Shown here piece after piece: positions 3,439 to 29,471 of a stretch of DNA of 32,000 bases (positions are counted from its first letter, which is position 1; each line of letters begins with the position of its first letter). Where the stretch lies: NCBI RefSeq assembly GCF_000007985.2, contig NC_002939.5:3450001-3482000 (forward strand), in the 5' to 3' direction. The DNA comes from Geobacter sulfurreducens PCA (lineage in GTDB: Bacteria; Desulfobacterota; Desulfuromonadia; Geobacterales; Geobacteraceae). Made by a program: the position numbers and the translations under genes. The notes below the pieces were generated by a model. The model made no database searches, had not been told where the DNA came from, and saw only the letters and a program-made list of their open reading frames with translations.

Positions 3439-3470
3439 GAAACCCTCTCGTTGTGGTGCTTCCGGCACTG

Positions 3471-4451: not shown

Positions 4452-4537
4452 GGGAAATCCAGGCGAAAAGGTACGACGTTGCATTTTTGTTACTATAGCA
4501 GAATGACCCGTGATAGAGGTGAGCGTATACGGAACCG

Positions 4538-8387: not shown

Positions 8388-9041
8388 TCAGTGGCCGTGG
8401 CTCACATGGGCATCGCCGTGGCCGTGAGGCGCCTTCGTCCCGGTCGGACCGCCATGGTGGGCGGCGTGTCCTTCCGCGGCCTGGTGGAGGCGCTCCACGT
8501 AGTGAGTGTACTCCACGTAGGCTGCCACGTACTTCCGGCCGGCCGCCACGCTCTCGTCCTTGTGCTTCTTCGCCTCGACAACCCGGTCGAAGCGCTCGCG
8601 GATACCGGCGGCAACCGCATCGGTGACGATCTTCACGAGTTCGGTCGATGACCCCGACGCCAGGGCCTCATCGGCCGCCGCCACCGGGGGCTCCACCGTG
8701 CCGGCGGGTTTGAGCCCGGTAAAGGGAGCCCCTTCTGCGGTCCGGTGGACCTTCACCAGCGAGGTGAAAAAGCGGTGCTCGGCCGCCTCCTTCGCCTTCG
8801 TCCCCTTCTGCGCTGCGGCTACGGCTTCTTTGAAGGAAGCGCGGACCGTGGGCTCATCCTTCTCCCGGACCCATTTGAGGACCGGGGTGACGTCGTTCTT
8901 CTTCAGGGCGATACGGGCATCCTGGATGACCGGGCCGTCCATGGTGTCGCAGTGGGCCCGGGCGCTGCCGGCGGACAGGGTGACCCCGGCGGAGAGAAGG
9001 GTTAGATAAAGGGCGGGGATAACAATGGTCTTCCTGTTCAT
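8388..9041 (-). CDS. Secreted/periplasmic protein of unknown function (DUF6448-like) with a His-rich C-terminal tail.
   Basis: 217 aa. Signal peptide MNRKTIVIPALYLTLLSAGVTLSAGSARA, then HCDTMDGPV at the mature N-terminus. The C-terminus is HQAAEGHAAHHGGPTGTKAPHGHGDAHVSHGH. AGGAGA RBS is present. The family assignment is from memory of the HCDTxDGPV motif and is tentative. Confidence 0.7.
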   Translation of the reverse strand: MNRKTIVIPALYLTLLSAGVTLSAGSARAHCDTMDGPVIQDARIALKKNDVTPVLKWVREKDEPTVRASFKEAVAAAQKGTKAKEAAEHRFFTSLVKVHRTAEGAPFTGLKPAGTVEPPVAAADEALASGSSTELVKIVTDAVAAGIRERFDRVVEAKKHKDESVAAGRKYVAAYVEYTHYVERLHQAAEGHAAHHGGPTGTKAPHGHGDAHVSHGH

Positions 9042-9723: not shown

Positions 9724-10731
9724 TCAGTGGCTCAGGTACGGCACCATGGGGATGAGCTGCCGGTAGTCCTCATAGGTAAGTGAGCTCTGCCAGGCGCCGG
9801 TGGCCATACCGGTGCCGATGCCGGCGGCGAAGAGGAGCAGCACCACGGCAGGGAACACCCATGCCGGGAGCGGCTGTCGCCAGAGGGGTGGCGCCATCCG
9901 GAGCACCTCCCGTTGGGGACAGCTGGCCACGCAGGTGAGGCAGCCGGTGCATTCGGCGGAGCGGATTGTCTCGCGCTCGTGGACCGGAAGCCCGGACGGG
10001 CAGGCCCTGGAGCAGCTGCGGCAGCCGGTGCAGCCGGCCGCGTCGCGCCGGATCTTGAAGGGACTCAGAAAACTCGCCACCCCCAACAGCGCGCCGTAGG
10101 GGCAGAGATAGCGGCACCAAGCGTTTTTGTAGAGCAGCGACAGTGCCGTGAGTACGAGGAGAGTCGCCACGGTGGTGCCCGACATCCGAGTAAAGAAGTG
10201 AAGCATCTTCACGTCGCTCACGGCCCAGTAGGGGGTTTCGAGAAAGGCCGCCAGGGCAAAGACCGGCATGTCGACCAGGATGATCTTGACGAAAAAGAGA
10301 AGCAGCAGGTACTTCGCCCCCCGCAGGACCCGGTCGAGCCGGGGCCAGACCCGGAAGTTGCGGCCAAAGAGCCGTTGTCCCAGCTTCCAGGCCGCCTCCG
10401 ACAGGGTCCCCACCGGACAGAGCCAGGAGCAGAACGACTTCTTCGCCACAAGGCTCATGCCGACGATGGTCAGGAAGATGACCAGGGCTGCCGGGTGGAC
10501 CGGGTTGATGGTGCCGGTGGCAAGCCAGAGCTTCGTGCCGGCCAAGGCACCGATGGGAAGAAATCCCTCCACTCCCGGCGGGCGGGAAATCAGCGGCGTT
10601 GCGCCGCCGGTCTCGAAGTGGCGGACAAAGACGCCGAAGCGGATGCCGATGACGACAACCCAGGCGAAGAAGCCCCACTGGACCAGGGAGCGCCAGAGGG
10701 TGATACGTGCATGCTGATGCCGATTGTTCAT
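9724..10731 (-). CDS. Integral-membrane 4Fe-4S polyferredoxin of the NapH/MauN/YccM type.
   Basis: 335 aa. It has several TM helices, two cytoplasmic-loop CxxCP motifs (CSWLCPVG, CRYLCPYG), and two C-terminal ferredoxin motifs (CTGCRSCSRACP, CTGCLTCVASCP). Confidence 0.85.
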   Translation of the reverse strand: MNNRHQHARITLWRSLVQWGFFAWVVVIGIRFGVFVRHFETGGATPLISRPPGVEGFLPIGALAGTKLWLATGTINPVHPAALVIFLTIVGMSLVAKKSFCSWLCPVGTLSEAAWKLGQRLFGRNFRVWPRLDRVLRGAKYLLLLFFVKIILVDMPVFALAAFLETPYWAVSDVKMLHFFTRMSGTTVATLLVLTALSLLYKNAWCRYLCPYGALLGVASFLSPFKIRRDAAGCTGCRSCSRACPSGLPVHERETIRSAECTGCLTCVASCPQREVLRMAPPLWRQPLPAWVFPAVVLLLFAAGIGTGMATGAWQSSLTYEDYRQLIPMVPYLSH

Positions 10732-10806: not shown

Positions 10807-12279
10807 CTACTTTTCCTTGGCCGCCAACGGGTCCTTGATCTCGTGCTCGGCCTTGAACATGAGCTTCTTCACTCCGCGGTTGTTCGTGTACTTGGCCAGC
10901 TCCAGGTCGACCTTGAGGGGAACCGTCACCCCGGCCTTGGCCAGGGCCTGCCGCAGGAACCCTTCGGCCTTGCCCGCGTGGGCAGCGGCGTCGCCCGTTA
11001 TTCGCAGAGCTTCGGTGGGATTATGGAAACCGATCGAGTTCTCGGCGCCGATGAAGACTACCCGGTAGAACGCCTCTTCGTAGTGATCCCTGGCTTGGTC
11101 ATAGAGGGCCTTGTCGATCTGCTTGCCTTCGGCCTGGGCCTTGTGGGCCATTTCGAAGAGCTTGGCCACGGTGGCAGTGGCGTATCCGGCCCGGATGAAC
11201 TGGGACATGGTCCGGTCCTGGATGGCGTACACCTGATTACGGAGCCATTCGGGACTCTCGGCATGGCACTGCTGGCACGCCTTGAGATCGTTCTTGAGGG
11301 GGCTCATGACCCGGTGGTCGGAGACCTTGCGGGTGCCCACCTTGGTGTAGGGCATGTGGCAGTCGCTGCAGGCGACCCCCGCCTGCCAGTGGACACTGTT
11401 GTTGGAGAAGAGCTCGAACTCGGGGTGGCGGATGAAGGCGAGTTTGAAGCCGGTTACCCCTTGGGTCCACTCGCGGTTTGCCGGGTTGCTCCGCAGTTTT
11501 GCGATGATGTTCTCGATGGTAATGCCGCCATAGCTGCTGCCATCCCAGGGGAAGAACACATCGGTCGACTTCATGTTCTCGTCCTTGGGAATGCTGTAGG
11601 TGACGTGGCACTGGGCACAGACCAGGGTCCGCTTGTCCTGGGTGGAGAGCTTCTCCTGATCCACGCCGAGCTTTTCCAGGGCCTTGCCGAGGGTGAACCC
11701 CCGCGAGACCTTCAGGGACAGGTCATTGTTGTTGTGGCAGTCGATGCAGGCCACGCCCAGCATCTGGTGCTCCTTGGGGATCTGGGCATGGACTTCCTTG
11801 TAGGGTTTGGAGAAGTAGTCCTTGCCGAGGCGCTGCTGCAGGGCCGGCGCATAGGGGGTCTTGCAGGTGAGACAGGAGCCTCCCGCCTTGACTCGCCCCG
11901 GGTCAACTTCGAACTGGTCCCGCACCATGTGGGCATGGCCCCTGGGCTCCTTGTACTCCACGCCGAACCCCCAACCGTTGTAGAGGAGCGCCAGGAAGGG
12001 GAACTCGTCCAGCTTGTCGTAGAAAACGCCGTCGTCGTCATACCCCTTCTTGTACCGGCTCTTACCCGCCACGGTGGGCTCTTCGGTCTTTTTCCAGAGA
12101 TCGTAGTGGACCGGGTAGGCCTTTCCCCATTCGGCCGGGTCGATGGTACCGTCGGGGATGGCGACCCTGCCGGCCTGTTCCACCTTCTTGGGGGCACAGC
12201 CGGCTCCGGCCGCCGCCACCGCTGCCGTTGCGGCCAGGGCAGTCACGACGGCCCAACGCTTCATGCTTCTCTTACTCAT
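10807..12279 (-). CDS. nrfA: Ammonia-forming pentaheme cytochrome c nitrite reductase NrfA.
   Basis: 490 aa. Signal peptide, the diagnostic CxxCK active-site heme motif (CLTCK), and four CxxCH motifs (CIDCH, CAQCH, CSDCH, CQQCH). A strong AGGAGAGGAG RBS is present. Confidence 0.95.
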   Translation of the reverse strand: MSKRSMKRWAVVTALAATAAVAAAGAGCAPKKVEQAGRVAIPDGTIDPAEWGKAYPVHYDLWKKTEEPTVAGKSRYKKGYDDDGVFYDKLDEFPFLALLYNGWGFGVEYKEPRGHAHMVRDQFEVDPGRVKAGGSCLTCKTPYAPALQQRLGKDYFSKPYKEVHAQIPKEHQMLGVACIDCHNNNDLSLKVSRGFTLGKALEKLGVDQEKLSTQDKRTLVCAQCHVTYSIPKDENMKSTDVFFPWDGSSYGGITIENIIAKLRSNPANREWTQGVTGFKLAFIRHPEFELFSNNSVHWQAGVACSDCHMPYTKVGTRKVSDHRVMSPLKNDLKACQQCHAESPEWLRNQVYAIQDRTMSQFIRAGYATATVAKLFEMAHKAQAEGKQIDKALYDQARDHYEEAFYRVVFIGAENSIGFHNPTEALRITGDAAAHAGKAEGFLRQALAKAGVTVPLKVDLELAKYTNNRGVKKLMFKAEHEIKDPLAAKEK

Positions 12280-15153: not shown

Positions 15154-15182
15154 GGTGGTGCAACGTCAGGCACATGCGCCTC

Positions 15183-16109
15183 TCAGGGAGGGCACTTGCC
15201 GCAAACCGACCGGAACAGGACCGTGCTGAGATAGCGGTCCCCCCGGTCCGGCAGGAGCACTACGATGGTGCTGCCTGCCGGGGCATCCCGTGCCACCTGG
15301 ACGGCACCCGCCACGGCGGCGCCGCTGGACATCCCCACGAAAAGGCCCTCGCGGGCGGCCAGCTCACGGGCCGTGTCGAAGGCCGGCTCGTCATGGACCG
15401 TCAGCTTCAGGTCCAGGGCCTCGGGGTGGTAGATGGGAGGCACGATGGCTTCCTGCATGTTCTTGAGCCCCTGCACCTTGTGCCCCAATCGCGGCTCCAC
15501 GCCCACGATGCGCACGGAAGGCTTCTTCTCCCGGAAATAGCGGCTCGTTCCCATCAAGGTGCCGCCCGTCCCCATGCCGGCCACGAAGAAGTCGACGGCA
15601 CCGCCGGTGTCCCGGAAAATCTCAGGCGCAGTGGTCTCATAGTGAGCCAGGGGATTGTTGGGATTGGCGTACTGGTTGGGCATGTAGTAGCGGTCCGGCT
15701 CCTCTTCCAGGATGCGGTGGGCCAGCCGGATGGCTCCGTCGGTGGCCTCGTCGTGGGGAGAGAGGACCAACTCGGCGCCATAGGCCTCCAGCACGGCGCG
15801 CCGTTCAAGGCTTACGCAGGCGGGCATCACGAGCTTGACCCGGTATCCCTTGACCGTGCCGAGCATGGCCAGAGCGATGCCGGTATTGCCGGAGGTCGGC
15901 TCGAGGATGGTCTTCTCCGGCACCAACTCGCCGGACTCCTCCGCCTTGGCCAGCATGTAGAGAGCCGGACGGTCCTTGACGGAACCGCCCACGTTATTCC
16001 CCTCCAATTTGGCCAGGATGCGAACCCGCGGATTCGGGTTCAGGTGTCGCAGCTCAACGAGGGGGGTGGCGCCGATGCTGCCGGCAAGCGAAAAAGGGGG
16101 ATGCTCCAT
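15183..16109 (-). CDS. PLP-dependent cysteine synthase (CysM-like).
   Basis: 308 aa. TPLVEL...KLEGNNVGGSVKDRPALYML (PLP lysine motif, closer to the CysM GSVKDR form than to CysK)...EPTSGNTGIALA...GTGGTL. Confidence 0.9.
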   Translation of the reverse strand: MEHPPFSLAGSIGATPLVELRHLNPNPRVRILAKLEGNNVGGSVKDRPALYMLAKAEESGELVPEKTILEPTSGNTGIALAMLGTVKGYRVKLVMPACVSLERRAVLEAYGAELVLSPHDEATDGAIRLAHRILEEEPDRYYMPNQYANPNNPLAHYETTAPEIFRDTGGAVDFFVAGMGTGGTLMGTSRYFREKKPSVRIVGVEPRLGHKVQGLKNMQEAIVPPIYHPEALDLKLTVHDEPAFDTARELAAREGLFVGMSSGAAVAGAVQVARDAPAGSTIVVLLPDRGDRYLSTVLFRSVCGKCPP

Positions 16110-16222
16110 GGCAGGATTCCTCTAAACGGAAAAAGGTGCTTAATGCCCCCTCATGCTATACGAACATGCCGCAAAAAACAACATTCGCGAGCCACCTCGG
16201 CTTTTGCCGCCAGGAAATCCCC

Positions 16223-16813
16223 ATGACGAACCCGACCCTTGACGAGATCGAACGCACCTTGAAGGACTCCGGAGGGGAAAACCGGCCGGCCGCCGCCGCT
16301 TATACCCCTGCAGCCGTGGCGCTGATCTTGCGCCGGGACGCCAGCGAGGTGTCGATCCTCTTCATCGAGCGCTCCCCCCACGATGGCGATCCCTGGTCCG
16401 GCGACCTGGGGTTTCCGGGCGGCAAGGTAGAGGCGGGCGATGCCGGTCCCCGTGCCGCCGCCGAACGGGAGACTCGGGAGGAACTGGGCGTTGACCTGGC
16501 CTCGGCCCGCCTGTTGGGTCGGCTTGCCGATATCGAGGGGGCCCACCTGCCGATCCGGGTGTCCTGCTTCGTCTACGGTGTGACCGGAGCACTTTCCCTT
16601 CACCCGGGCGGCGAGGTCCGCGACGCCTTCTGGGTCTCCCTGGAGGCACTGTGCGATCCCGCCCGCCACGTAACTGCGCCGGTCCGCTTCGGCGGCGAAC
16701 CCTTCGAGCGACCGGCCATCATCCTTCCCGTGTCAGGAAAGCCGGTCCTGTGGGGGATCACCTACCGGCTCGTGATGCAGTTCCTGGCCCTCCTCGGCAA
16801 GGCACGGGGATGA
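16223..16813 (+). CDS. NUDIX hydrolase (CoA pyrophosphatase-like).
   Basis: Nudix box GFPGGKVEAGDAGPRAAAERETREELG. Start placed at the ATG at 16223 (MTNPTL). Confidence 0.85.
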   Translation: MTNPTLDEIERTLKDSGGENRPAAAAYTPAAVALILRRDASEVSILFIERSPHDGDPWSGDLGFPGGKVEAGDAGPRAAAERETREELGVDLASARLLGRLADIEGAHLPIRVSCFVYGVTGALSLHPGGEVRDAFWVSLEALCDPARHVTAPVRFGGEPFERPAIILPVSGKPVLWGITYRLVMQFLALLGKARG

Positions 16814-17571: not shown

Positions 17572-17655
17572 TTTTTGCCGTGGCGGCGCGTATGGTACGC
17601 GCAGGGACAACCATTGCGCGCTGTGTTACTCTTTTCAGGCAGGGAGGTACATGTC

Positions 17656-18144
17656 ATGGGAGAGAATACGAGTCTTGAGAAGGCTACCTTCGGGGCCGGC
17701 TGTTTCTGGCATGTGGAAGAGGAGTTCCGCCGCGTGCCCGGAGTCGTCTCAACCCTGGCGGGATATATGGGGGGATGGAAGGAACACCCCACCTACGAGG
17801 AGGTCTGCTCCAAGACCACCGGCCACGCCGAGGTGGTGGAGGTGACCTTTGACCCCGCCGCCGTCACCTATGACCACCTGCTGCGGGTCTTCTGGGACTG
17901 CCACGACCCGACCCAGCTCAACCGGCAGGGCCCCGACATCGGCACCAACTACCGCTCCGTCATCTTTTACCACTCGCCGGACCAAGAGCGGGCGGCCCGG
18001 GCCTCCCTAGAGCACGAGCAGCGTTCCGGGCGCCATGCCCGCCCCATCGTTACCGAGATCGTTCCGGCTGCCACCTTCTGGTGGGCCGAGGAATACCACC
18101 AGCACTACCTGGAAAAACGGGGCGGCGGCAGTTGCCGCTGGTAG
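17656..18144 (+). CDS. msrA: Peptide-methionine (S)-S-oxide reductase MsrA.
   Basis: ATFGAGCFWHVEEEF...GYMGG...PTYEEVCS..TGHAEVV. AGGGAGG lies 8 nt upstream of the ATG at 17656. Confidence 0.93.
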   Translation: MGENTSLEKATFGAGCFWHVEEEFRRVPGVVSTLAGYMGGWKEHPTYEEVCSKTTGHAEVVEVTFDPAAVTYDHLLRVFWDCHDPTQLNRQGPDIGTNYRSVIFYHSPDQERAARASLEHEQRSGRHARPIVTEIVPAATFWWAEEYHQHYLEKRGGGSCRW

Positions 18145-18239: not shown

Positions 18240-19286
18240 ATGAACATCATTGACCTGCGCAGCGACACCGTTACCCGGCCGAGCCCTGCCATGCGCGCCG
18301 CCATGGCGGGAGCCGAGGTAGGGGACGACGTCTATGGCGAAGACCCGACCGTGAACCGGCTGGAGGAACTGGGCGCCGCCACGCTCGGCACGGAAGCGGC
18401 CCTGTTCACCGCCAGCGGTACCCAGGCCAATCTTCTGGCTCTCCTGGCCCACTGCCGGCGTGGTGACGAATACATTGCCGGCCAGACCGCCCACTGCTAT
18501 CGCTACGAAGGGGGCGGTGCCGCCGCTTTGGGGGGCATCCAGCCCCAGCCCCTGGAGGTGGAACCCGACGGGACCCTCGATCTCTCAGCCGTGGCCGCCG
18601 CCATCAAGCCGGACGACCTCCACTTCGCCCGCACCCGGCTCCTCTGCCTGGAAAACACCCATGCCGGGCGGGTTCTTCCCCTGGACTACCTGGCACGCGC
18701 CAGACGGCTCTGCAACGAGCAGAGCCTTGGCCTGCACATGGACGGTGCCCGCATCTTCAATGCCGCCGTAAAGCTCGGCGTACCGGTCCGCGAGATCGCC
18801 GGTCACGTGGATTCGGTGTCGGTCTGCCTCTCCAAGGGGCTCGGCGCCCCGGTGGGGTCGCTGCTCTGCGGGGGAAGGGAGTTCGTCGCCACGGCCCGCC
18901 GGTGGCGCAAGGCGGTCGGAGGAGGCATGCGCCAGGCCGGCATCCTGGCGGCCGCCGGCATCCTGGCGCTGACCGAAAACGTTGACCGGCTCGCCGAGGA
19001 CCATGCCAACGCCCGCCGCTTGGCCGAGGGGTTGGCCGCCATCCCGGGGCTGGGCCTTGACCCGTCCCAGGTCCAGACCAACATGGTATTCCTGTGCCTC
19101 CCTCTCCGGACGGCGGACCGGCTCGCCTCATTTCTCAACGAACAGGGAATTCTCATCTCCGGCCGGGAAAGTATCCGTCTCGTCACCCACCTTGACGTAA
19201 CCTCTTCGGACGTGGAACGGGTTATCGCGGCATTCGGCGCATTCTTCGCCGGCCACGGCGAGATGCAACCGGGAGCATCGTCATGA
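18240..19286 (+). CDS. ltaE: Low-specificity L-threonine aldolase.
   Basis: 348 aa. [19 protein letters not shown]...[16 protein letters not shown]...SGTQANL...[12 protein letters not shown] (PLP lysine). Confidence 0.9.
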
Positions 19287-19651
19287 TGGTCCGCAGTCTC
19301 ACAGCCATGCTTGTCCTTGCCGCTACCGTGGCGCTCACACCGGCACTGCTCCATTCCGCCCCGGACAAGCCCGGCCGGACAGCCGAATCCCGTAACCCCT
19401 CAGTGGTCATCTTCGTCGGTGAAGGCTGACCCTACTGCGATGAGGTGGAAAGGTTTTTCACCGAAAAGGGCATCCCCTACACCTGCCGCGACATCCGCCG
19501 CGACCGCGCCGCGTTCCGGGAGTGGCGCGAGCGCTACGGCGGCGAGATCGTACCCATGGTAGTCCTCGATGGAGGAAAGAAGGTTATCGACGGCTGCGAC
19601 ATTCCTGCCATCGAACGCGCCCTGGCGGACATTCGCTCCTCCCGGCCGTGA
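19283..19651 (+). CDS. Exported glutaredoxin-fold thiol/selenol oxidoreductase, a predicted selenoprotein with Sec encoded by TGA at 19427-19429. 122 aa.
   Basis: Hand translation gives [48 protein letters not shown]-[TGA][73 protein letters not shown]. The TGA falls exactly where Grx has the first Cys of CPYC. The same frame continues into ORF-track 19445..19651. The cis-Pro (VP) and GCD motifs are present. The ATG overlaps the ltaE stop (ATGA). The N-terminus looks like a signal peptide. Confidence 0.75.
19430..19470 (+). promoter_or_regulatory. Candidate bacterial SECIS element.
   Basis: Starts directly after the UGA. Lower stem is CCCU/AGGG (19430-33 with 19467-70). Upper stem is GGUGGAA(A)/(U)UUUCACC (19444-51 with 19455-62). 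The apical loop contains GGU. The upper stem begins 14 nt after the UGA. Confidence 0.55.
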
Positions 19652-19725: not shown

Positions 19726-19754
19726 TTGACTTTTAATGTGAGCTCTTTTATTGT
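19726..19754 (+). promoter_or_regulatory. Putative sigma-70 promoter at the head of the T6SS locus.
   Basis: TTGACT-N17-TATTGT in the only AT-rich stretch of the 345-bp gap, about 245 nt upstream of the tssL start. Confidence 0.45.
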
Positions 19755-19997
19755 TTCGGCAATTCTCATGACAGAGGAGACCGGACTCATTCCCATCCGC
19801 TAGGACGGCGGCCCGCGCGATTCACCCGGAATCAGACCTTTCCTGGCATTTCCCATCACAGCGAACGGTGACTCACGGTAGCCGGAGTGCTTAACGGTAC
19901 CGCCGTGCGTCCATGCCCCGTCATGCCCATCGATGCCGGGTTCGATCCTGCCTTCGGCCGTCGCACAGCAGCGGCCGGCAGAGAGGTTTATCCATCC

Positions 19998-20681
19998 ATG
20001 CATCTGACCGACTGCTTCACAGACGTTATGGCCTACCTGAACCACTCCCTCCGGACCATCGGGGTCCGACAGCCCCCCTACGGAGAAATTCGCTGTGAAA
20101 TCGAACGGTTCATGGCGACGGCGGATGCCGCAGCCCGCAGCGAAGGGCTCGACGGGGAGGAATTCGACCTGGCGCGCTTCGCCGTCTGCGCCTGGATCGA
20201 CGAAGCGATTCTCTCCTCATCATGGGAAGAAAAAAACACCTGGCTGAAGGAACAACTCCAGCGCATCCACTACGCCACCACCGACGCGGGGGAGGAATTC
20301 TTCACCAGGCTCACGGCGCTCGGGCTCAATCAGCGGGAGGTGCGGGAAGTGTTCTATCTCTGCCTGGCCTTCGGCTTTACCGGCAAATACTGCAAGCCTG
20401 GCGACGAGTACCACCTGGAACAGTTGAAAACCGCCCAGCTGAAACTGCTGATGGGAAGTTCGGTAGGACTTCCCTCTCTGGAACGGACCGAACTCTTTCC
20501 CGAGGCATGGCCGTCGGGGCCGGCACCGGCAACCGTCCGCCCCGGACGCGGGCAGGGAAGCCGGGCGTTCCTGGTTGCCGTGGCAGCTGTGCCGGTGGCC
20601 TTGTTCCTGATTCTGCTCCTGGCCTACCGCTTCACGCTCACGGGCGTGGGTGACACGTTCCTGAGGACGGTACCATACTGA
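19998..20681 (+). CDS. tssL: Type VI secretion membrane-complex protein TssL (DotU family, short form without a peptidoglycan-binding domain).
   Basis: DLARFAVCAWIDEAIL...EEFFTRL...REVREVFYLCLAFGFTGKY... plus a single C-terminal TM helix (FLVAVAAVPVALFLILLLAY). Start placed at the ATG at 19998. The upstream GTG at 19887 and the ATG at 19923 are possible. Confidence 0.88.
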   Translation: MHLTDCFTDVMAYLNHSLRTIGVRQPPYGEIRCEIERFMATADAAARSEGLDGEEFDLARFAVCAWIDEAILSSSWEEKNTWLKEQLQRIHYATTDAGEEFFTRLTALGLNQREVREVFYLCLAFGFTGKYCKPGDEYHLEQLKTAQLKLLMGSSVGLPSLERTELFPEAWPSGPAPATVRPGRGQGSRAFLVAVAAVPVALFLILLLAYRFTLTGVGDTFLRTVPY

Positions 20682-20682
20682 A

Positions 20683-23600
20683 ATGAGCGAACGGATGATG
20701 AAATCGCTGAAATGGCTGCTGCTGGCGAGTGTCGTCGTGCTCACGGTATTCCTGGTGGCCGGGATCGTCCTGGCGCTCGACTGGCCCTGGTGGGTGACCT
20801 TCTGCCTGTTGCTGCTCCTTGCCGGAATCGCAGCGGGGGCCATACTGCTGCGGTCCCTACTGCTGCGGCGCCGGGAGCGACACTTCGTCAGGGAGGTTAT
20901 CGAGCAGGAAAAAGACACCCTCTCCACCCTGTCAGACGGAAGCCGTACGCATCTGGACCAGCTCGCTCAACAGTGGAAAGAAGGGGTGGGAGCCCTCAGA
21001 GGCTCGCACCTCAAGCGACGGGGCAACCCCCTCTACGTGCTCCCCTGGTACCTGGTCATCGGCGAGAGCGGTTCCGGCAAGAGCACGAGCCTTGCCAGCG
21101 CCCGTCTCCCCTCTCCCTACACCGATTCCCGACGGTCCGCCGATGATGCCGGTACGCGCAACTGCGACTGGTGGTTCTTCGAAGAGTCCGTCGTGCTCGA
21201 CACGGCGGGCCGTTACGCCGTGCCGGTCAACGGGGAGCGGGACCGGGACGAATGGCAGAAGCTCCTGGCGCTGCTGGTCAGGCACCGGAGACGCGAACCC
21301 CTGAACGGTCTCGTCCTGACCGTGGCGGCAGACCGACTCCTTGCCGGCGGACGGGAGGAAAACGCCGAGGAGGGGCGTACCATGCGCCGCCGGGTGGATG
21401 AACTGATGCGCGCCCTGGGGGTGCGGGTACCGGTTTACGTGCTCGTAACCAAGTGTGACCTTATCGAAGGGATGAACTGCTTCGCCGAACTTCTGCCGGA
21501 AAAGGCGCTGCGCCAGCCCATGGGCATGATCAACCGAGATCTGACCGCCAACGTGGGCTCGTTCACGGCCAGGACCATGGAGACGGTAACCGAGCGACTC
21601 AGAAGTCTCAGGCTCCAGATCCTCCACCGGCCCGAAGCCCGCGACGCGACGCCGGCTCTCGCCTTTTTCCCCGAGGAATTCGCAGGGCTCCGCGAAGGGC
21701 TCACCGCGTTCATGGAAGGGACGTTCCGCGAAAACCCCTATCAGGAAACCCCGTTGCTGCGAGGGGTGTTCTTCGCCAGCGGCCGTCAGGCCGGCAGCCC
21801 CCGTTCCCGGTTCAGCGGGACACTGGGCACCGTTGCCGGGCCCCAACCGCTCCCCGACACCAGCCGTGGCATCTTCCTCCACGACTTCTTTGCCCGGGTC
21901 CTTCCCGCCGACCGGGCACTCCTGACCCCGACACAACGGTCTGTCCAGTGGCGCACCGTCACCGGCAACCTCGGGCTCCTCTCCTGGCTGCTGGTGGGGC
22001 TGGCCCTGTGTGGCCTCTTGTCGTTTTCCTTCGTGAAGAACATGGCCACCATTCGCGAGGTATCGCGCCAATTCGAACGGACGCCGCCCATCAATGCTGA
22101 TCCGGTGAATAATCTCCTGGTCCTGGAGAGCCTTCGCCAGGGGATTCTGCGCGTGGAAGAGCAGAATCGCGCCTGGTGGGTGCCCCGGTTCGGCCTTAAT
22201 GAAAGCCGGCGGGTTGAAGCTGTTCTCAAGGACAAGTTCTGCAACCAGTTCCGGGATGGCTTTCTCGCCCCCTATGACCGTCACCTGGCCGAAGAGCTGA
22301 ACGGTCTCTCCGCGGCCACGCCGGACGAACTCTTTGCCCGGTACGCCATCCACCTGACGCGACGGATCAACATCCTTACCGCCAGCCGGGCAGGCAGGGG
22401 GCTCGATGAACTGCGCGCCCTCCCTCAGCCGGCGTCCCTGTCGTTCATGGCCGCTGAGACGCCGTCGGTCGCCGACGCGCACAAGCGGTTCGGAGAGCTC
22501 TATCTCCACTATCTTGCATGGCGATCCGACTCTCCCGACTTGGCCCGCGAGGCGGCCCAGCTCCAGGGCTGGCTCAGGCGGTCCCTCGCGCTCAAAACCG
22601 ACAGCCTTTCCTGGCTCGCCCCCTGGGTTGACCGTCATGGGGGGCTATCACCCGTAACCCTGGCGGAGTTCTGGGGAGGAAGCGTGCCGGCCCCGGATGA
22701 GCCGACGATCACCCCGTCCTTCACCGGCAAGGGTAAAGACCGGATTGACGGGCTCATGCGCGAACTGGAGACCGCGGTGGGCGACTCACGACTTCTGGCG
22801 AAGGCACGGGCAGGGTTCGTCCCCTGGTACCGGGCCCTGTGCCTGCAGGCGTGGCAGGGATTCGCAGCCTCATTCCCCCGCGGCGCCGAGAGGCTTCGGG
22901 GCAGCGGCGAGTGGCAGCAGGCCGCTACCCGGATGGCGACCGAGCACGGTCCGTACTTCGCGTTCATCACCCGGATGACCCAGGAGTTGCACACCCTGGC
23001 GGGCACGGAGGGACTCCCTCCCTTTGCAGCACAGCTCTTCGCATTCCAGATTGCGCGAACCGGGGGAGCCGTCTCGCACGATGCAGCAGCCAACGTCACC
23101 GCCGAAAGCCGTCGCCTCATGGCCTCCATCCGCAGGAGGCTGGGAAACGAGGCTGCGGCCAGCACCATCGATCCGACCTTCATGGCATCGCGCAGCTGGC
23201 AGGAATACCAGGCAGCCCTGGCGGCCATCGCTCCAGCCGCATCATCGCGGCAGCAGGCCTTCCAACTGGCATCCCAGACCTTCACCGATGATCCCGCCAC
23301 GGGGAAAACCCCATTCCATGCAGCCTGGAATGCGGCCGCACGGCTGAAGCGGGATATCGCCGGCGCCGGTGCCGACGACGCCTTCTGGCGCCTCGTCACC
23401 GGTCCCCTCGATTTTCTCTGGGGATATGTCAGGCGCGAAGCCGGTTGCCAGCTCCAGACCCTCTGGGAGGAGCAGGTCCTCGCCCCCACCCTGGGCATGC
23501 CCCCCCAACAGGCGGGGCCAATGCTGCTGGGCGCCGATGGCCTTGCCTGGCGCTTCGTGAAGGGCCCGGCCGCCCCCTTTGTCCGGGGCACGGCAGCGGG

Positions 23601-24147
23601 GTACGCCCCCCGGCAGGCACTGGGCGGAGCGCTGCCGCTGGAGGGATCCCTCTTCGCCTTTTTGGGCAAAGGGGCACAGCTCAATGCCATGGCATCCGGC
23701 CGGCAGTCGAACTATACCGTAGCAATCAAGGGACTTCCCACCGATGCGAACCCCGAGGCCCGGATCAAGCCGCACGGCACGCGATTGGAGCTCCAGTGCG
23801 CCGGGCAAGCCCAGGCTCTCGCGAACCACAACTTTCCTGCCGGCAAGACCTTTTACTGGTCGCCCGACAGCTGCGGCGACGTGATCTTCCAGATTGAGGC
23901 GGGCGACCAGGTACTCACAAAGCGATATGCTGGACCCCAGGCATTCCCGGACTTTCTACGCGAGTTCGCCAGCGGGCATCGCACGTTTGCGGCCGGAGAG
24001 TTTCCCGGCGAGAAAGATGCGCTGGCTCGCATGGGGATCACCTCAATCCGGGTAAGCTACCAGTTCACCGGCAGTCAGCAGGTGATCAGGCAGGGCGGCG
24101 CCATGGCCGGAGCCACGGCTCCACGGATGATCGCCCGGTGCTGGTAG
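20683..24147 (+). CDS. tssM: Type VI secretion membrane-complex protein TssM (IcmF family).
   Basis: 1154 aa. N-terminal TM hairpin, Walker A in LPWYLVIGESGSGKST, a third TM near residue 440, and a long periplasmic C-terminal region. It starts 1 nt after the tssL stop. Confidence 0.92.
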   Translation: MSERMMKSLKWLLLASVVVLTVFLVAGIVLALDWPWWVTFCLLLLLAGIAAGAILLRSLLLRRRERHFVREVIEQEKDTLSTLSDGSRTHLDQLAQQWKEGVGALRGSHLKRRGNPLYVLPWYLVIGESGSGKSTSLASARLPSPYTDSRRSADDAGTRNCDWWFFEESVVLDTAGRYAVPVNGERDRDEWQKLLALLVRHRRREPLNGLVLTVAADRLLAGGREENAEEGRTMRRRVDELMRALGVRVPVYVLVTKCDLIEGMNCFAELLPEKALRQPMGMINRDLTANVGSFTARTMETVTERLRSLRLQILHRPEARDATPALAFFPEEFAGLREGLTAFMEGTFRENPYQETPLLRGVFFASGRQAGSPRSRFSGTLGTVAGPQPLPDTSRGIFLHDFFARVLPADRALLTPTQRSVQWRTVTGNLGLLSWLLVGLALCGLLSFSFVKNMATIREVSRQFERTPPINADPVNNLLVLESLRQGILRVEEQNRAWWVPRFGLNESRRVEAVLKDKFCNQFRDGFLAPYDRHLAEELNGLSAATPDELFARYAIHLTRRINILTASRAGRGLDELRALPQPASLSFMAAETPSVADAHKRFGELYLHYLAWRSDSPDLAREAAQLQGWLRRSLALKTDSLSWLAPWVDRHGGLSPVTLAEFWGGSVPAPDEPTITPSFTGKGKDRIDGLMRELETAVGDSRLLAKARAGFVPWYRALCLQAWQGFAASFPRGAERLRGSGEWQQAATRMATEHGPYFAFITRMTQELHTLAGTEGLPPFAAQLFAFQIARTGGAVSHDAAANVTAESRRLMASIRRRLGNEAAASTIDPTFMASRSWQEYQAALAAIAPAASSRQQAFQLASQTFTDDPATGKTPFHAAWNAAARLKRDIAGAGADDAFWRLVTGPLDFLWGYVRREAGCQLQTLWEEQVLAPTLGMPPQQAGPMLLGADGLAWRFVKGPAAPFVRGTAAGYAPRQALGGALPLEGSLFAFLGKGAQLNAMASGRQSNYTVAIKGLPTDANPEARIKPHGTRLELQCAGQAQALANHNFPAGKTFYWSPDSCGDVIFQIEAGDQVLTKRYAGPQAFPDFLREFASGHRTFAAGEFPGEKDALARMGITSIRVSYQFTGSQQVIRQGGAMAGATAPRMIARCW

Positions 24148-24193
24148 GGCCACACTCTCTGTGGCTGTATCGCAGGAACAAGGAGCGGAACTG

Positions 24194-26563
24194 ATGCCCT
24201 CCGTTGATCCGTGCTGGCGCTGGTCTGCCTTCGGCAAACATCCTGCCGCAGCTGACTATTTTCGGCTCGGTGAGGATTCTCCCTTTGTCGAAGGATTGGC
24301 CGCATGGGTGGAGAACGGGTACCGGCATCTCATCAGTCGGCACGAAGCGACAATGCCGTTCTGCTCCTGGCGCTTCTGGGCCCGCGGGTTCGGCCGGGAT
24401 TCCCTTGTCCTTGGAGTGGTCCGGCTCTCCAGCGACAGCCTCGGCCGCTCCTATCCGCTGCTCATCATGGGAAGCGGCCCCCTTGAGGGATGGGAAGAGC
24501 AGTGGGACCTGCTCCCTTTTGCTTGTGAACCGTCATGGTGCCAGATCGAGTACTTGGCGACGCATTCCTTTGATGGTCTGAAGCACGTGGGTGAAGAACT
24601 CCGAAGGGTTCGCCCCCCCGGGTCGGACTGGGACGAGCTGGCGGAACGGCGCCGCGGCCTGAACCGGCTCGGTTCCCCCCTTGATCCCTATGCATCCTTC
24701 CTGGACATCCCCAGTCTCGAACGACTGGTCGCCGAACATTCCGGCCGGGAAGAGTTTTCCGTCAGACTCGACCGGGGGCCGGTGCATGACAAAATCACCC
24801 TGGTAAGCCTTTGGCACCTCCTGACCAAGAGGACCGTCAAAGGAGTCCCCCACACCCTTTTCATGGGCGGCAACCTGGAACACTCCTTTCTCGCCTCCTT
24901 CCGGCGGGCCCTGGCCCCGGGGGATTTTCTCCACCTCTGGTCCGCGCCGGAGGCAGGAGGATGGCACGACAGCATCGGAACGGGGCACGCCTTGGACATT
25001 GCATCTATCGGAAAAGAACCGGTGTGCCCCGAACGGCCGGCCGGCGAGGATATTCGCTACGATCCCCTCTTCGACGCGCTCCAGGCGGAGGTTGACAAGC
25101 TCACCTCCCCCGCCGTGGCCGGTGCCGTCGACTGGGAACGGGTGGTACATATGGCAGCCGACATCCTCGCCACCCGGTCCAAAGACCTCCTTGTGGCGAG
25201 CTACCTGGCAGTGGGACTCGTCCAGACCCGCGGGGGTGACGGCCTCGCTCTGGGGCTCACTGTCTGGCGCGATCTCCTGGAACGGTTCTGGTGCACCCTC
25301 TACCCCACCCGCACACGGGGGCGCCAACGATCGGTGGAGTGGTGGCTGGATCGGACCGTGATCGCCCTGCATCATCAGGGAAACTGGTCCCTTCCCCCTG
25401 AGCAACACGGCATTGTGCTGGAAACCCTTGGCGCCATAGACCGCTTTCTGGGAGAGCGCCTGGAGGATGCCCCCTCCCTTACGAAACTGAGGCAACTACT
25501 GGCGGACATGGCGCCGGAAGGCGGAGAAGAAACGGCCCCCGAAGCCGTGGTTGCTACGCCGGCTCAAGCCGAGGCTCCCGCCACTGGCCTATTCGCTCCG
25601 CCCCGTCAAACCGCCGCCCCCGCCGTGGAGCCCCCCTGTCAGGCGATTGCCACTGGCTCCTCCCTTCAGATGCTGGAGGAAGCGCTTCGCCAGGTGGGGG
25701 AGGCGGCCGGCGCCCTCATCCAGCAGGATCCCGCGGCCCCCGTATCCTATCGGCTCTCCCGCCTTGCCGCCTGGGGGAAGGTAACCGAGCTCCCGCCGTC
25801 GATAAACGGACGTACCCGAATCCCTCCTCCCGAGCGGCAGGTGCTGACCCTTCTCCAGGAACTGGCCAGCCACGGAGACGGCGAGGCGCTCCTGAAGGCG
25901 GCTGAGGCGCGGCTTCCCCAGTTCATCTTCTGGCTCGATCTGAGCCGGCTCACCGCCAAGGCTCTCTGCCGCCTCGGCGACCGCTTTGCCGCCGCCCGCG
26001 AAGCGGTCTGCGCGGAGACGGCCGCCTTTGTGGGTCGGCTTCCGGCCCTTCCTGACCTGACCTTTGCCGACGGCACTCCCTTTGCCGCCCCGGAAACCCG
26101 CCAGTGGCTCACGGGGCTCGCACAGCGCGGGGCATCCGTTGCAGACTGCCCTGCGGTGGGTCATAACGACGGCCGCGCCGCGGCCATTGCCCGGGAGGTG
26201 GAAGAGGCCCAGGCTCTCATTCGGGACGGCAAACTCCTGGAGGCGGTGGAGCGGTTCCAGAAACAACTCGGCAACGGCGCCTCCCGCAAGGAGAGGCTCC
26301 ACTGGCGTCTCGCCCTGGCCCAACTCCTTGTGAACACCAATCGGGCCAAGCTGGCGCTCCCCCATCTAGAGCAGGTCGTGGCGGACATCGAGGCCTTCGG
26401 CCTCGAAGAGTACGACCCGGCCCTGGCCCTGCGGGGGCTGAAGCTCGCCTGGGCCGGCTTCGATTCCCAGATCGAGCCCCGCTTCAAGGAAAAGGCCGCC
26501 GATGCCCTCCACCGGATCGCCCGCCTCGATCCGGTGGAGATGGTGCGACTGACGAAGGGGTAG
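24194..26563 (+). CDS. tssA: TagF-TssA fusion protein: an N-terminal TagF (DUF2094/ImpM) domain joined in-frame to a full-length ImpA_N-type TssA (VasJ-like).
   Basis: Residues ~12-262 of the tracked ORF carry the TagF signature (WSAFGKHPAAADYF...SYPLLIM...GDFLHLW). From about residue 278 (nt ~24990) onward is the TssA N-terminal signature LDIASIGKEPVCPERPAGEDIRYDPLFDALQAEVDKL...WERV...A..IL...SKDL. There is no stop codon between the two. AGGAGC lies 7 nt before the ATG at 24194. Confidence 0.8.
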   Translation: MPSVDPCWRWSAFGKHPAAADYFRLGEDSPFVEGLAAWVENGYRHLISRHEATMPFCSWRFWARGFGRDSLVLGVVRLSSDSLGRSYPLLIMGSGPLEGWEEQWDLLPFACEPSWCQIEYLATHSFDGLKHVGEELRRVRPPGSDWDELAERRRGLNRLGSPLDPYASFLDIPSLERLVAEHSGREEFSVRLDRGPVHDKITLVSLWHLLTKRTVKGVPHTLFMGGNLEHSFLASFRRALAPGDFLHLWSAPEAGGWHDSIGTGHALDIASIGKEPVCPERPAGEDIRYDPLFDALQAEVDKLTSPAVAGAVDWERVVHMAADILATRSKDLLVASYLAVGLVQTRGGDGLALGLTVWRDLLERFWCTLYPTRTRGRQRSVEWWLDRTVIALHHQGNWSLPPEQHGIVLETLGAIDRFLGERLEDAPSLTKLRQLLADMAPEGGEETAPEAVVATPAQAEAPATGLFAPPRQTAAPAVEPPCQAIATGSSLQMLEEALRQVGEAAGALIQQDPAAPVSYRLSRLAAWGKVTELPPSINGRTRIPPPERQVLTLLQELASHGDGEALLKAAEARLPQFIFWLDLSRLTAKALCRLGDRFAAAREAVCAETAAFVGRLPALPDLTFADGTPFAAPETRQWLTGLAQRGASVADCPAVGHNDGRAAAIAREVEEAQALIRDGKLLEAVERFQKQLGNGASRKERLHWRLALAQLLVNTNRAKLALPHLEQVVADIEAFGLEEYDPALALRGLKLAWAGFDSQIEPRFKEKAADALHRIARLDPVEMVRLTKG

Positions 26564-26569
26564 ATAACG

Positions 26570-27763
26570 ATGGAACAGGATTGCGAATCGATTGCTTGCG
26601 GAAAAGGCTCCAAAACCAGGGCCCAAAAATCCGGAACCGGCGGGCGGATCGCCGTGACCGGTTTCGGCCTCGTGACCCCCATGGGAGTTACGTCCTGGCG
26701 CTCCGTGTCAGCCGTGATCCGCAACCGCAGCCACTTCGCCTGGCACGAAACGGTTCTGGTGGCCGACGCCCCCGACGGCACCGCCCTGCGTGGTGCGACG
26801 ATCAGCCGGGTTTCGGGGGAAGGCGTGCGGTTCGGCCTGACCGGGAGCGAGCGAAGTCTGGCGCTCTTGGCACCGGCGCTCCGGGAGGCCACCAGCGGCC
26901 TTTCACCCTCCCCTGGCGACGCGGTGCCGGCATGGATCATCAATGGGATCCCTTCGGAAGAAGTCGGGGCAATTCCCTGTCCGGCGGACATTCTTCCCCT
27001 CCTCTCTCCGATGGAGCATCTACCGGTTGGCCGGGAGGCAGGCTCCGGACGCTGCCTCTTTCTTGACCGGGTAGCCGAGGCGGCGAAGGCCCTCAGAGAG
27101 GGGAGATGTCCGCGGGCGCTCGTCGCCGCCGTCGACTCCCTCTGCTTCCTGCCGGTGCTCGAAGAACTCCTGGCGGCCGGCAGACTTCTGAGCGGGCCGA
27201 ACCCCGAGGGGATCATCCCCGGAGAGGCGGCCGGAGCCATCCTCCTGGAGCGGGAAGAGTCGGCACGGAAGCGGGGCGCCCCCATCTACGCGTTCGTCTC
27301 ATCACGGGGCCACGGCATTGATCCCGCTCCCCGCACCGGAGGCCGCCCTTCGCAGGGGAGGGGGCTCACCGAAGCGTTTTTTCAGGCCTTCGATGGACTT
27401 CCCACCACCGGTGGAGAGATGGGGCTGGTCGTCGCCGACCTGAACGGCGAACGGCAGCGTGCGCTGGGATGGGCCGTGACCGAAGAACGGGTTTTCGGCC
27501 CCTCACACCGGGAGCGGCAACTGTGGCTCCCCGCCTTCTCCGTCGGGGAATGCGGCGCGGCCCTCGGCGTGGTGCAGACCGTCGTCGCCGTCGCAGCTCT
27601 TGCCAAGGACCTCGCCAACGGGGAGCAGGTCGCCCTCTGTTCCTCCGATGACGGAGGAGAGACACGGGTACTCTGTCTCGATCAGGGGGACTTCGCCGAT
27701 CGCCATGCCCTTAACCGGTGGCGGCGGGAGCGGCAGGCGAAAACGAACGAAAGAGTAACCTGA
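26570..27763 (+). CDS. Thiolase-fold, beta-ketoacyl-synthase-like protein with a degenerate active site.
   Basis: 397 aa. RIAVTGFGLVTPMG matches FabF RVVVTGLGMLSPVG. GIIPGEAAGAILLEREESARKRGAPIYAFV matches [30 protein letters not shown]. In a by-eye alignment to E. coli FabF, the Cys position may be kept (GRCLF), but His303 aligns with Asp (VVADLNGE) and His340 with Glu (FSVGECGAALG). Confidence 0.75.
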   Translation: MEQDCESIACGKGSKTRAQKSGTGGRIAVTGFGLVTPMGVTSWRSVSAVIRNRSHFAWHETVLVADAPDGTALRGATISRVSGEGVRFGLTGSERSLALLAPALREATSGLSPSPGDAVPAWIINGIPSEEVGAIPCPADILPLLSPMEHLPVGREAGSGRCLFLDRVAEAAKALREGRCPRALVAAVDSLCFLPVLEELLAAGRLLSGPNPEGIIPGEAAGAILLEREESARKRGAPIYAFVSSRGHGIDPAPRTGGRPSQGRGLTEAFFQAFDGLPTTGGEMGLVVADLNGERQRALGWAVTEERVFGPSHRERQLWLPAFSVGECGAALGVVQTVVAVAALAKDLANGEQVALCSSDDGGETRVLCLDQGDFADRHALNRWRRERQAKTNERVT

Positions 27764-28431
27764 TGGGAGCAACGCTTGTCGTCAACGGCCAGACCGTCGT
27801 CCACAAGGAAAGCGGCGGCGTAGTCACCACCACCGACGTCTGCAAGACGCCGGTGGGAAACACCGTGGTGCCGATTCCCTACACCAACGTCGCCCGGTCG
27901 GTCGATGTGGCAAACGGCAGCAGTACCGTGGCCGTGGACGGCCACCCGGTCATGCTGAAGGATTCGGTCTTCAGCCGCAGCAGCGGAGATGAGCCGGGCT
28001 CCCTCGGCGGCGTCGCCTCCGGGGTCACCGGCGGCAAGGCGAAGTTCGTCAACTTCTCGAACAACGTCTTCTTCGAAGGACGCCCGGTCTGCCGCCGTCT
28101 CGACCCCATGGTCAGCAACCTCTCCGGCACGGGGAACACCCCGCCGGCGCCTCTGATGCAGGAGAATATAGCCGTGGCGGCCGACGATCACCAGGGGCAC
28201 CGGATACCGTTCACCTTCTCCTTCAGGCATCCGGACTTGAAAAGCGGCAGGGTCGAATTCCCCTCATTCACCGCCCGGCACGCCATGGAGGGAACGACCG
28301 ATCCGGGGGATGACCCCGACGGCTACTGCGACGACGTCCACCTCGCCGGCGCGCCGGGGACCCACGACCTGAGGTTCGCCGACTTCGAGCGCGAACGGAA
28401 GAAACTCCCCCGCGAGGAGACCACCACATGA
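27763..28431 (+). CDS. DUF4150 PAAR-like T6SS spike-tip protein with a ~90-aa C-terminal extension of unknown function.
   Basis: MGATLVVNGQTVVHKESGGVVTTTDVCKTPVGNTVVPIPYTNVARSVD...GSSTV.VDGHPVMLKDSVFSRSSGDEPGSLGGVASGVTGGKAKFVNFSNNVFFEGRPVCRRLDPMVSN matches the DUF4150 pattern. The ATG overlaps the stop of the KAS-like gene (TGATG). Confidence 0.85.
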   Translation: MGATLVVNGQTVVHKESGGVVTTTDVCKTPVGNTVVPIPYTNVARSVDVANGSSTVAVDGHPVMLKDSVFSRSSGDEPGSLGGVASGVTGGKAKFVNFSNNVFFEGRPVCRRLDPMVSNLSGTGNTPPAPLMQENIAVAADDHQGHRIPFTFSFRHPDLKSGRVEFPSFTARHAMEGTTDPGDDPDGYCDDVHLAGAPGTHDLRFADFERERKKLPREETTT

Positions 28432-29456
28432 CCATATCCGCCACCCTGCGCAGGGCGCTCCTCTTCCTGCTCATCACGCCGATCGTCACCCTGCTTGCCT
28501 GCACGAGCAGCGAAGGGACGCAGAAAAAAAGCACGCAACCCTCGACTGACAAAGGAGTACCACGGATGACCACCTACCCCATCGGAAGATTCGCCATCGA
28601 TGTGCCGGCGGAGATGAAGCTGGTTCACCAGTGGCAGAGGCTCCGCTACGCGGAGATCGAGGAGTTTGCCTGGTCCGGCAGCGTTCCCCGCGAACGGGCC
28701 CGTGACGAGGCATGGAAGAAGCGCCTGACAGAGATCGGCAAACTCACTCCACCCAAAGGAAAGGAGCGGGTGATCATCGAGACTCGCGAGTTTCCCGGTG
28801 TTGGGGCGTGGGCGCGGGGAATCCTCTTCTACGGCAACAGAATGAGTCCAAAGGACGGGAATTGGCTGATTCTTATGGATGTGGGTCAAACTGCTGCATG
28901 GCTGGAATTAAAGGGGCTCGTTCAATACGAGCAGGATATGCTTCACGATCTGACCGAGATTGCGAAATCTTATCAAGCTCGTCGCTTCGGCGATCTCAAA
29001 CTCCCCCCTGGCAACTGGTTCTATACCGAACGTGGTGCCATCAATCTCCCCTACCTGGAGCAGGAAACGGCCGCCGCCCGGTTCGAGGGGCACCCGCTGG
29101 GGTTGGAGATCGACATCGAGACAACGGAGACGCACAAGGTAGAAGAAGCCGGTCTCATCAAAAAGACCATGGCCGCCATGGCGACAGGATTCGCCACCGG
29201 TTTGGATATCGACAAAATCCGCTCCAGGAAAAAGACTGTTGCCGGCCTCGACGGAGAAGAAGAAGTTCTCAAAATGAACGATGGCAACAAAACCGTCTTG
29301 AACTTCGCATGGGAATACCGGGGAAGAAAGGATTCCGGAGAGTATCCGGAGATACGCATTACCATGGACAGCGCTGATGGCAAACTGGAGCAAAAGCTCC
29401 AGGTCTGGGACGCCATCCTTAACTCGCTGAAACCGATGTACGGAACCGGCAGATAA
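28428..29456 (+). CDS. Lipoprotein, probable Tli4-family T6SS lipase immunity protein.
   Basis: 342 aa. Signal peptide with lipobox (LITPIVTLLAC|TSS). The motif YPIGRFAIDVPAEM resembles the CxGRFxIDLP motif I recall for Tli4-type immunity proteins. The ATGA overlap with the PAAR-like gene and the position immediately upstream of a lipase support this. The family call is tentative; the CDS and lipoprotein calls are firmer. Confidence 0.65.
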   Translation: MTISATLRRALLFLLITPIVTLLACTSSEGTQKKSTQPSTDKGVPRMTTYPIGRFAIDVPAEMKLVHQWQRLRYAEIEEFAWSGSVPRERARDEAWKKRLTEIGKLTPPKGKERVIIETREFPGVGAWARGILFYGNRMSPKDGNWLILMDVGQTAAWLELKGLVQYEQDMLHDLTEIAKSYQARRFGDLKLPPGNWFYTERGAINLPYLEQETAAARFEGHPLGLEIDIETTETHKVEEAGLIKKTMAAMATGFATGLDIDKIRSRKKTVAGLDGEEEVLKMNDGNKTVLNFAWEYRGRKDSGEYPEIRITMDSADGKLEQKLQVWDAILNSLKPMYGTGR

Positions 29457-29471
29457 CGGGGAGAACCACGG

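Follow-up and report, generated by a model that had tools for sequence, protein, structure and literature searches.

A gene at positions 19283–19651 of the DNA stretch analyzed here very likely encodes a selenocysteine (Sec)-containing, probably exported protein of the glutaredoxin (Grx) family, in which an in-frame UGA codon is recoded. The stretch, hereafter called the window, comprises 32,000 nt of Geobacter sulfurreducens PCA (contig NC_002939.5, positions 3,450,001 to 3,482,000 of the forward strand). That the gene genuinely decodes Sec we regard as highly probable. The gene is real and its reading as a selenoprotein is correct, but it is also already known. An earlier note on this DNA had presented it as a "hidden" selenoprotein, which does not hold, as the identical U-containing sequence was published in 2006. 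The present analysis covers the anatomy of the gene, the conservation of its UGA, the exchange between Cys and Sec among relatives, the constraint acting on the RNA, and the fold of the product.

Gene structure and previous records

The coordinates of all features are given in Table 1. The start codon ATG (19283–19285) shares an ATGA overlap with the stop codon TGA of the gene ltaE (19284–19286). In the translated window, the in-frame TGA (19427–19429) is preceded by the residues VVIFVGEG and followed by P-Y-C. The list of open reading frames (ORFs) splits the gene into one piece of 48 amino acids (aa) at 19283–19429 and a second one of 68 aa at 19445–19651, which begins with a GTG at 19445. 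Taken alone, the 68-aa fragment contains neither strand β1 nor the active site. The earlier note had named the ATG, the overlap with ltaE, the in-frame TGA and the frame shared with the 68-aa ORF, and each of these was confirmed on the sequence; likewise, its claim that gene callers split the gene at the in-frame TGA is borne out by the 48-aa and 68-aa pieces in the ORF list.

Zhang, Romero, Salinas and Gladyshev (2006; Genome Biol 7:R94, PMC1794560) give the complete protein in their supplementary file 4, where it is filed under “#Glutaredoxin” as “>Geobacter_sulfurreducens”. This entry is the same protein as the window product, without any sequence difference (122 of 122 residues identical, same start, same U), and the selenoprotein was, therefore, already known. 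Table 3 of that study lists eight selenoproteins for G. sulfurreducens, namely SelD, FdhA, a Prx-like protein, a thioredoxin, a distant AhpD homolog, a glutaredoxin, a HesB-like and a SelW-like protein. The species is counted there among the selenoprotein-rich bacteria, and the study defines Sec decoders by the presence of SelA plus SelB (Zhang et al., 2006; PMC1794560). From this literature we take both that the gene product was predicted to be a selenoprotein and that the species decodes Sec. A “glutaredoxin 3”-like read-through ORF had been listed for AE017180 by Chaudhuri and Yeates (2005), and in reviews from 2022 and 2026 the selenoprotein families with experimental support include “Glutaredoxin (Grx), PF00462, UxxC”. 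The Grx exemplar of these reviews, WP_010943784.1, is probably the window protein (unconfirmed). No mention of the locus tags GSU3163 and GSU3164 was found in searchable papers, and the 32-kb window contains no tRNA and no sel gene. The first report of a glutaredoxin selenoprotein is said to be that of Kryukov and Gladyshev in 2004.

Conservation of the TGA codon and Cys-containing relatives

For the comparison, we used DNA of G. sulfurreducens-like contigs (L001–L006), of Geomonas edaphica, G. diazotrophica, G. oryzae and three metagenome-assembled genomes (MAGs; all in L007–L012), of ten metagenome loci, and of more distant cluster representatives. In every Sec-form locus, the TGA is present at the same codon and in the same frame. 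The stretch from the TGA to a hairpin downstream of it is spanned by 20 distinct Sec-form sequences from Geobacter, Geomonas, MAGs and metagenomes, and the Sec-form relatives reach down to about 60% identity. Upstream, the Sec-form loci share the motif P-x-[IV]-x-[IMLV]-[FY]-[VTI]-G-x-G, which is followed by U-x-[YH]-C. In the codons 5′ of the TGA, the variation is mostly synonymous or conservative; the Pro at −10, for example, uses all four codons. Thus, the region upstream of the TGA is under purifying selection as a coding sequence. Strand β1 5′ of the TGA and the domain 3′ of it are both conserved in the Sec-form loci, with changes falling mainly on third positions.

At the TGA codon, two relatives carry a Cys codon (TGT or TGC) instead, i.e., L023/P0017 with SGCSYC and L032/P0019 with HGCPYC, and more distant relatives show WCxxC at this position. 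It had been claimed that the TGA replaces the first Cys of the CPYC motif, and Cys-containing orthologs aligned at this very position had been proposed as a check; P0017 and P0019 are such orthologs, and both align there. All 14 relatives found by a word-indexed database search are fragments of 67–77 aa starting just 3′ of the TGA position. This common start immediately after the TGA is the signature of systematic mis-calling.

A conserved hairpin downstream of the TGA

The hairpin, whose start lies 14 nt downstream of the TGA, has a 7-bp stem (GGUGGAA/UUUCACC) or, in an alternative pairing, a stem of 8 bp and a loop reduced to GGU. The earlier note had described this stem-loop with its GGU apical loop at the same distance. 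The structure fits the features of a bacterial selenocysteine insertion sequence (SECIS), namely a stem-loop that lies shortly 3′ of the UGA and has a G in its small apical loop (PMC1088965).

Across the Sec forms, stem pairing was found in 140 of 140 cells. Two pairs show compensatory double changes (L031 has C-G for U-A, and L024 has G-C for A-U), and single-side changes in the stem were G-U to A-U in three sequences and U-A to U-G in one. Only three of 500 shuffles do as well as the covariation of the hairpin, and all slid registers are far worse. At the codon level, the stem codons GTG, GAA, TTC and ACC show zero synonymous variation in 15 distinct close orthologs, compared to 4 invariant codons among 24 comparable fully conserved degenerate codons elsewhere in the gene (Fisher p = 0.0034). 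The 5-nt loop has the consensus A-G-K-U-W, in which A25, G26 and U28 are invariant in the Sec forms. In these forms, a Ser in the loop is always encoded by AGU and never by UCN, and an Arg always by AGG and never by CGN; due to this restriction, the three positions stay invariant. Both Cys forms have lost the loop's AG (UCAUA and AAGUA; loop codon UCA or AAG), and one stem pair is broken in each. Covariation and the constraint at synonymous sites support the hairpin as a putative functional SECIS.

Glutaredoxin domain and fold

Profile searches of the 122-aa product were run with U replaced by C. The Pfam profile Glutaredoxin (PF00462) matched with an E-value of 5.9e-12 and 46 bits (cut-off 22.9), aligning residues 41–97 to positions 1–57 of 60 in the profile, and the domain consequently spans the TGA. 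The profile check recommended in the earlier note thus gave a match above the gathering threshold and across the TGA. In NCBIfam, the best match was the YruB-family glutaredoxin-like TIGR02196, which at 50.2 bits lies below its cut-off of 88.55, and the UXX-star family NF041212 reached 42.1 bits with a cut-off of 66. Since all best NCBIfam matches are below their cut-offs, there is no curated equivalog for the Sec-Grx clade. The UXX-star selenoproteins (NF041212, NF041114, NF041211, NF047338) have a Grx-like fold and weak similarity to the Geobacter protein. Based on the family name, we take their Sec to be located three residues from the C-terminus, whereas Sec in the Geobacter protein is residue 49 of 122 and part of an N-terminal UxxC motif.

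The best sequence matches in PDB were 4tr0 and 7c10 (cGrx1), with E-values of about 1.5e-6 (7c10: 1.7e-6), both aligned to residues 40–114. In these alignments, UPYC is matched by their CPYC/CPHC motif and the cis-proline by their V-P; this V-P pair is invariant across the alignment of relatives. The PDB title of 4tr0 is “GSSG-bound cGrx2”, and we take it to be a Clostridium oremlandii protein. The resemblance at the glutathione site is partial and consists of IVP and of DGCD versus GGCD in 4tr0.

A structural model was made with AlphaFold for P0017, the closest Cys-form relative (106 residues aligned with the window protein at 42% identity). Its mean predicted local distance difference test (pLDDT) score is 86 and exceeds 95 through the domain, while the first approx. 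36 residues are of low confidence. The topology of the model is the canonical β1-α1-β2-α2-β3-β4-α3, and the active-site C46 stands just ahead of helix 47–58, i.e., at the start of α1. Among PDB folds, Grx and Grx-like proteins match the model best. First comes 7c10, titled “Dithiol cGrx1” (target TM-score 0.89, root-mean-square deviation 1.4 Å, 30% identity), and the next is BC3987 of Bacillus cereus, which is named thioredoxin-like protein in its PDB entry.

The protein cGrx1 of Clostridium (Alkaliphilus) oremlandii is a characterized selenoprotein glutaredoxin (Kim et al., 2011, as cited in PMC13188914). Like the Geobacter protein, it has UxxC in a short Grx fold. However, it measures approximately 75–84 aa and has no N-terminal extension, and is, therefore, presumably cytoplasmic, whereas the Geobacter protein carries 40 residues of signal and linker. 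The motifs differ as well, with UPYC in the Geobacter protein and UPHC in the Alkaliphilus sequence.

Predicted export signal and localization

Signal sequences were judged by a hydropathy heuristic (mean Kyte-Doolittle value over 12 residues) and lipoboxes by the PROSITE pattern. The G. sulfurreducens protein has a mean value of 2.29, and all 17 relatives, Sec and Cys forms included, have a hydrophobic N-terminal core with values above 2.1. The PROSITE lipoprotein pattern is found in five of these 17 (LVGC, LLGC, LLAC, AAGC, LLSC), several others have lipoboxes of a looser kind, and still others have clean AXA sites, e.g., INA/QQ or AEA/VQ (the slash marks the presumed cleavage). A lipobox Cys is missing from the G. 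sulfurreducens form, and its only AXA-like site is HSA/PD; with Pro as the next residue, cleavage there is uncertain.

The same layout of signal or lipobox, short linker and Grx domain with the cis-Pro kept occurs in exported Cys-type Grx-like proteins of 108–127 aa (P0017, P0025–P0061). In contrast to the Geobacter protein, these have WCxxC or GCxxC instead of Sec and no requirement for a SECIS, and they are more distant (E-values of 1e-20 to 1e-4 versus the C-terminal profile). As the Cys relatives share the export layout, an extracytoplasmic location would be shared by the entire clade instead of being peculiar to the Sec form. On these sequence features, we consider it likely that the glutaredoxin domain is extracytoplasmic.

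The earlier note had claimed an exported Sec-Grx and had called this unusual. A hydrophobic N-terminal signal is indeed present, as in all 17 relatives, but the combination is not very unusual. Exported thioredoxin-fold selenoproteins, i.e., DsbA-like, DsbG-like and thiol:disulfide interchange proteins, are already listed in surveys (Zhang et al., 2006; PMC1794560), lipoprotein selenoproteins have been described in the literature, and the Cys relatives of the clade bear the same putative export signals. Hence, the export signal is a small refinement and no surprise. The words “signal peptide” and “periplasm” are absent from the main text of Zhang et al. (2006; PMC1794560); since this text is silent on export, the export signal and the orthologs from Geomonas and MAGs are small additions made here.

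Opposing observations and alternative explanations

Several observations speak against an exported selenoprotein at this locus. The single-sequence energy of the hairpin is ordinary (z = −0.19), as is that of the wider region (z = +0.12), and any functional claim for the hairpin must, therefore, rest on the comparison with relatives. Within this comparison, each compensatory change is known from one sequence only, the conserved peptide V-E-x-[YF]-F-T dictates part of the stem, and both Cys forms retain most of it. Rfam, scanned over the entire window with its gathering thresholds, returned no match, with no check on whether it includes a general bacterial SECIS model. Pro at position +1 of HSA/P disfavors signal peptidase I. 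Finally, no experimental evidence of Sec incorporation or export for the window protein was found in the searchable literature.

Without a lipobox and with Pro after HSA, the G. sulfurreducens protein may be signal-anchored instead of released. This leads to an alternative in which the selenoprotein is real, but its N-terminus is an uncleaved inner-membrane anchor or, less likely, the protein is a cytoplasmic reductant for neighbors such as MsrA. The gene msrA is located two genes upstream, and the closest structure is that of Clostridium cGrx1; in reviews, the selenoprotein Grx of C. oremlandii is cited as reducing a selenoprotein MsrA. Against this, all relatives have a hydrophobic signal and many have lipoboxes, indicating an extracytoplasmic domain, the local MsrA is a Cys-type protein that lacks a signal sequence, and the msrA-ltaE-grx arrangement is not kept outside G. 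sulfurreducens. We judge this alternative unlikely, though clearly ahead of the following two.

Alternatively, the UGA might be read through without Sec, either by near-cognate insertion of Trp or Cys or independently of SelB. The database protein P0021 (L031 374–715, ENA ERZ15185996) indeed shows Trp at the Sec position. However, the locus L031 carries TGA and yields no translation to the query under table 11; the Trp is, therefore, an artifact of another genetic code and was rejected as a sign of read-through. Further, CxxC has its catalytic Cys at this position and no residue other than Cys or Sec works there, a SECIS-like hairpin under selection stands at the right distance, and the species decodes Sec. 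Read-through without Sec is accordingly very improbable. As an aside, artifacts such as the Trp of P0021, caused by TGA under a non-standard code, could mislead Sec/Cys alignments.

Least credible of all is a TGA acting as true stop, which would make the locus either a glutaredoxin pseudogene in decay or a pair of small ORFs unrelated to each other, with short products or none: gene callers do annotate the locus in this way (YM18_3049 plus YM18_3050, and fragments of 68–77 aa) and the hairpin energy of the single sequence is unremarkable, but a pseudogene would not keep TGA, frame and purifying selection on both sides in 20 distinct sequences down to approx. 60% identity, the 68-aa piece lacks β1 and the active site, the Cys forms align exactly on the TGA, and the RNA stem shows synonymous constraint as well as compensatory changes.

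Proposed mechanism

For a recoded, exported selenoprotein, we infer Sec insertion, export, substrate and reductant as follows. According to the standard bacterial mechanism, SelB with Sec-tRNA(Sec) would bind the hairpin. The UGA at 19427 would then be read as selenocysteine and not as a stop, giving the 122-aa protein instead of the 48-aa and 68-aa pieces. Sec49 would take the N-terminal nucleophilic position of UxxC at the start of helix α1 and could cycle between the selenol/thiol state and a selenenylsulfide with Cys52. The signal is predicted to be signal peptidase I-like or a signal anchor in G. sulfurreducens and a lipobox in many Geomonas and MAG orthologs. Judging from these signals, the domain would be placed outside the cytoplasm, most likely as a periplasmic or membrane-tethered thiol/selenol-disulfide oxidoreductase.

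More tentatively, and with some doubt on our side, the clade may represent an extracytoplasmic, glutathione-independent selenol oxidoreductase which is lipoprotein-tethered in Geomonas and anchored or soluble in G. sulfurreducens. Under this glutathione-independent scheme, electrons supplied, e.g., by a DsbD- or CcdA-type membrane reductase would keep periplasmic thiols reduced. In these cytochrome-rich bacteria, candidate substrates would be apocytochrome CxxCH motifs and oxidized periplasmic proteins.

Genomic neighborhood

The gene order at the locus is msrA, ltaE, grx and then tssL (GSU3165). LtaE of the window is identical to AAR36553.1 of strain PCA and ADI85913.1 of strain KN400. The msrA gene (17575–18144), two genes upstream of the Sec-Grx gene, encodes an MsrA of the Cys type (GCFWH) without signal peptide. 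In Geomonas and in MAGs, the neighbors of the grx loci are wholly different. As the neighborhood is not conserved, no functional inference is drawn from the coupling to ltaE, from msrA or from the type VI secretion system (T6SS), and the likeness to the Clostridium Grx1-MsrA pair is only a lead; the proximity of msrA is probably coincidental.

A T6SS cluster (19887–31091) follows directly downstream and corresponds to GSU3165–GSU3171 in PMC10580878; the genes tssL, tssM and tssA next to grx are GSU3165–GSU3167 (PMC10580878). The AT-rich gap between the stop codon of grx and tssL contains a sigma-70-like promoter match (19726–19754; TTGACT, 17-nt spacer, TATTGT), suggesting that transcription of the T6SS genes is separate from that of msrA-ltaE-grx. 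For three long ORFs of the window (3453–4781, 442 aa; 15174–16226, 350 aa; 26570–27763, 397 aa), no Pfam match at E ≤ 1e-5 was obtained. Whether the first of them is real is uncertain, as the opposite strand carries an overlapping ORF of 356 aa.

Table 1. Features of the selenoprotein gene and of other genes in the window.
Feature	Position	Strand	Remarks
Complete selenoprotein coding sequence	19283–19651	+	122 aa, U at residue 49, stop TGA 19649–19651; from translation
Shine-Dalgarno-like GGGAG	19271–19275	+	7 nt 5′ of ATG; read from sequence
N-terminal signal sequence (predicted)	19283–19360	+	one Arg, then approx. 19-residue hydrophobic core; cleavage after HSA uncertain
Glutaredoxin-fold domain	19403–19624	+	residues 41–114; Pfam, PDB sequence matches, AlphaFold model of Cys ortholog P0017
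UGA decoded as selenocysteine, Sec49 (predicted)	19427–19429	+	TGA in 20 of 20 distinct Sec-form ortholog sequences
U-P-Y-C redox motif	19427–19438	+	orthologs U-[PSTLG]-[YH]-C
Bacterial SECIS-like hairpin	19444–19462	+	stem 19444–19450 with 19456–19462, loop AGGUU 19451–19455
DotU/TssL	19887–20681		T6SS cluster
TssM	20683–24147		T6SS cluster
TssA-like fusion	24161–26563		T6SS cluster; 800 aa, TagF_N + ImpA_N + VasJ domains
Tli4_C immunity-like protein	28428–29456		T6SS cluster
PGAP1-like lipase effector candidate	29472–31091		T6SS cluster
Cytochrome c552 nitrite reductase NrfA	10807–12279	−	unrelated to Sec-Grx
Fer4_5 4Fe-4S membrane protein	9724–10731	−	adjoins NrfA; unrelated to Sec-Grx
DUF6448 protein	8388–9041		near NrfA; unrelated to Sec-Grx

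Annotation and significance

The fragment of 68 aa is identical to YM18_3050 of strain YM18, in which the 48-aa piece is annotated as YM18_3049. Truncated ortholog records of 68–72 aa were found as well (L007, NZ_SSYB01000002.1; L008; L012; P0010; P0001). Such records are named “glutaredoxin family protein” (RefSeq, Geomonas edaphica, 71 aa) or “hypothetical protein” (YM18 and subsp. ethanolicus). The practical value of the present analysis is thus annotation repair, the gene being split or truncated in YM18, in subsp. ethanolicus, in RefSeq Geomonas and in many metagenome calls. As a discovery, the gene matters little, since publications on the selenoprotein date back to at least 2005–2006 and the Grx UxxC family is part of current reviews. 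What is added here is modest, namely the predicted extracytoplasmic signals throughout the clade and the orthologs which are still annotated as fragments. Surveys listing the Geobacter Grx selenoprotein do not discuss a periplasmic localization or role. The biological value is modest, too: predicted export or lipoprotein signals in all members point to a periplasmic selenol/thiol redox role, which would probably be independent of glutathione.

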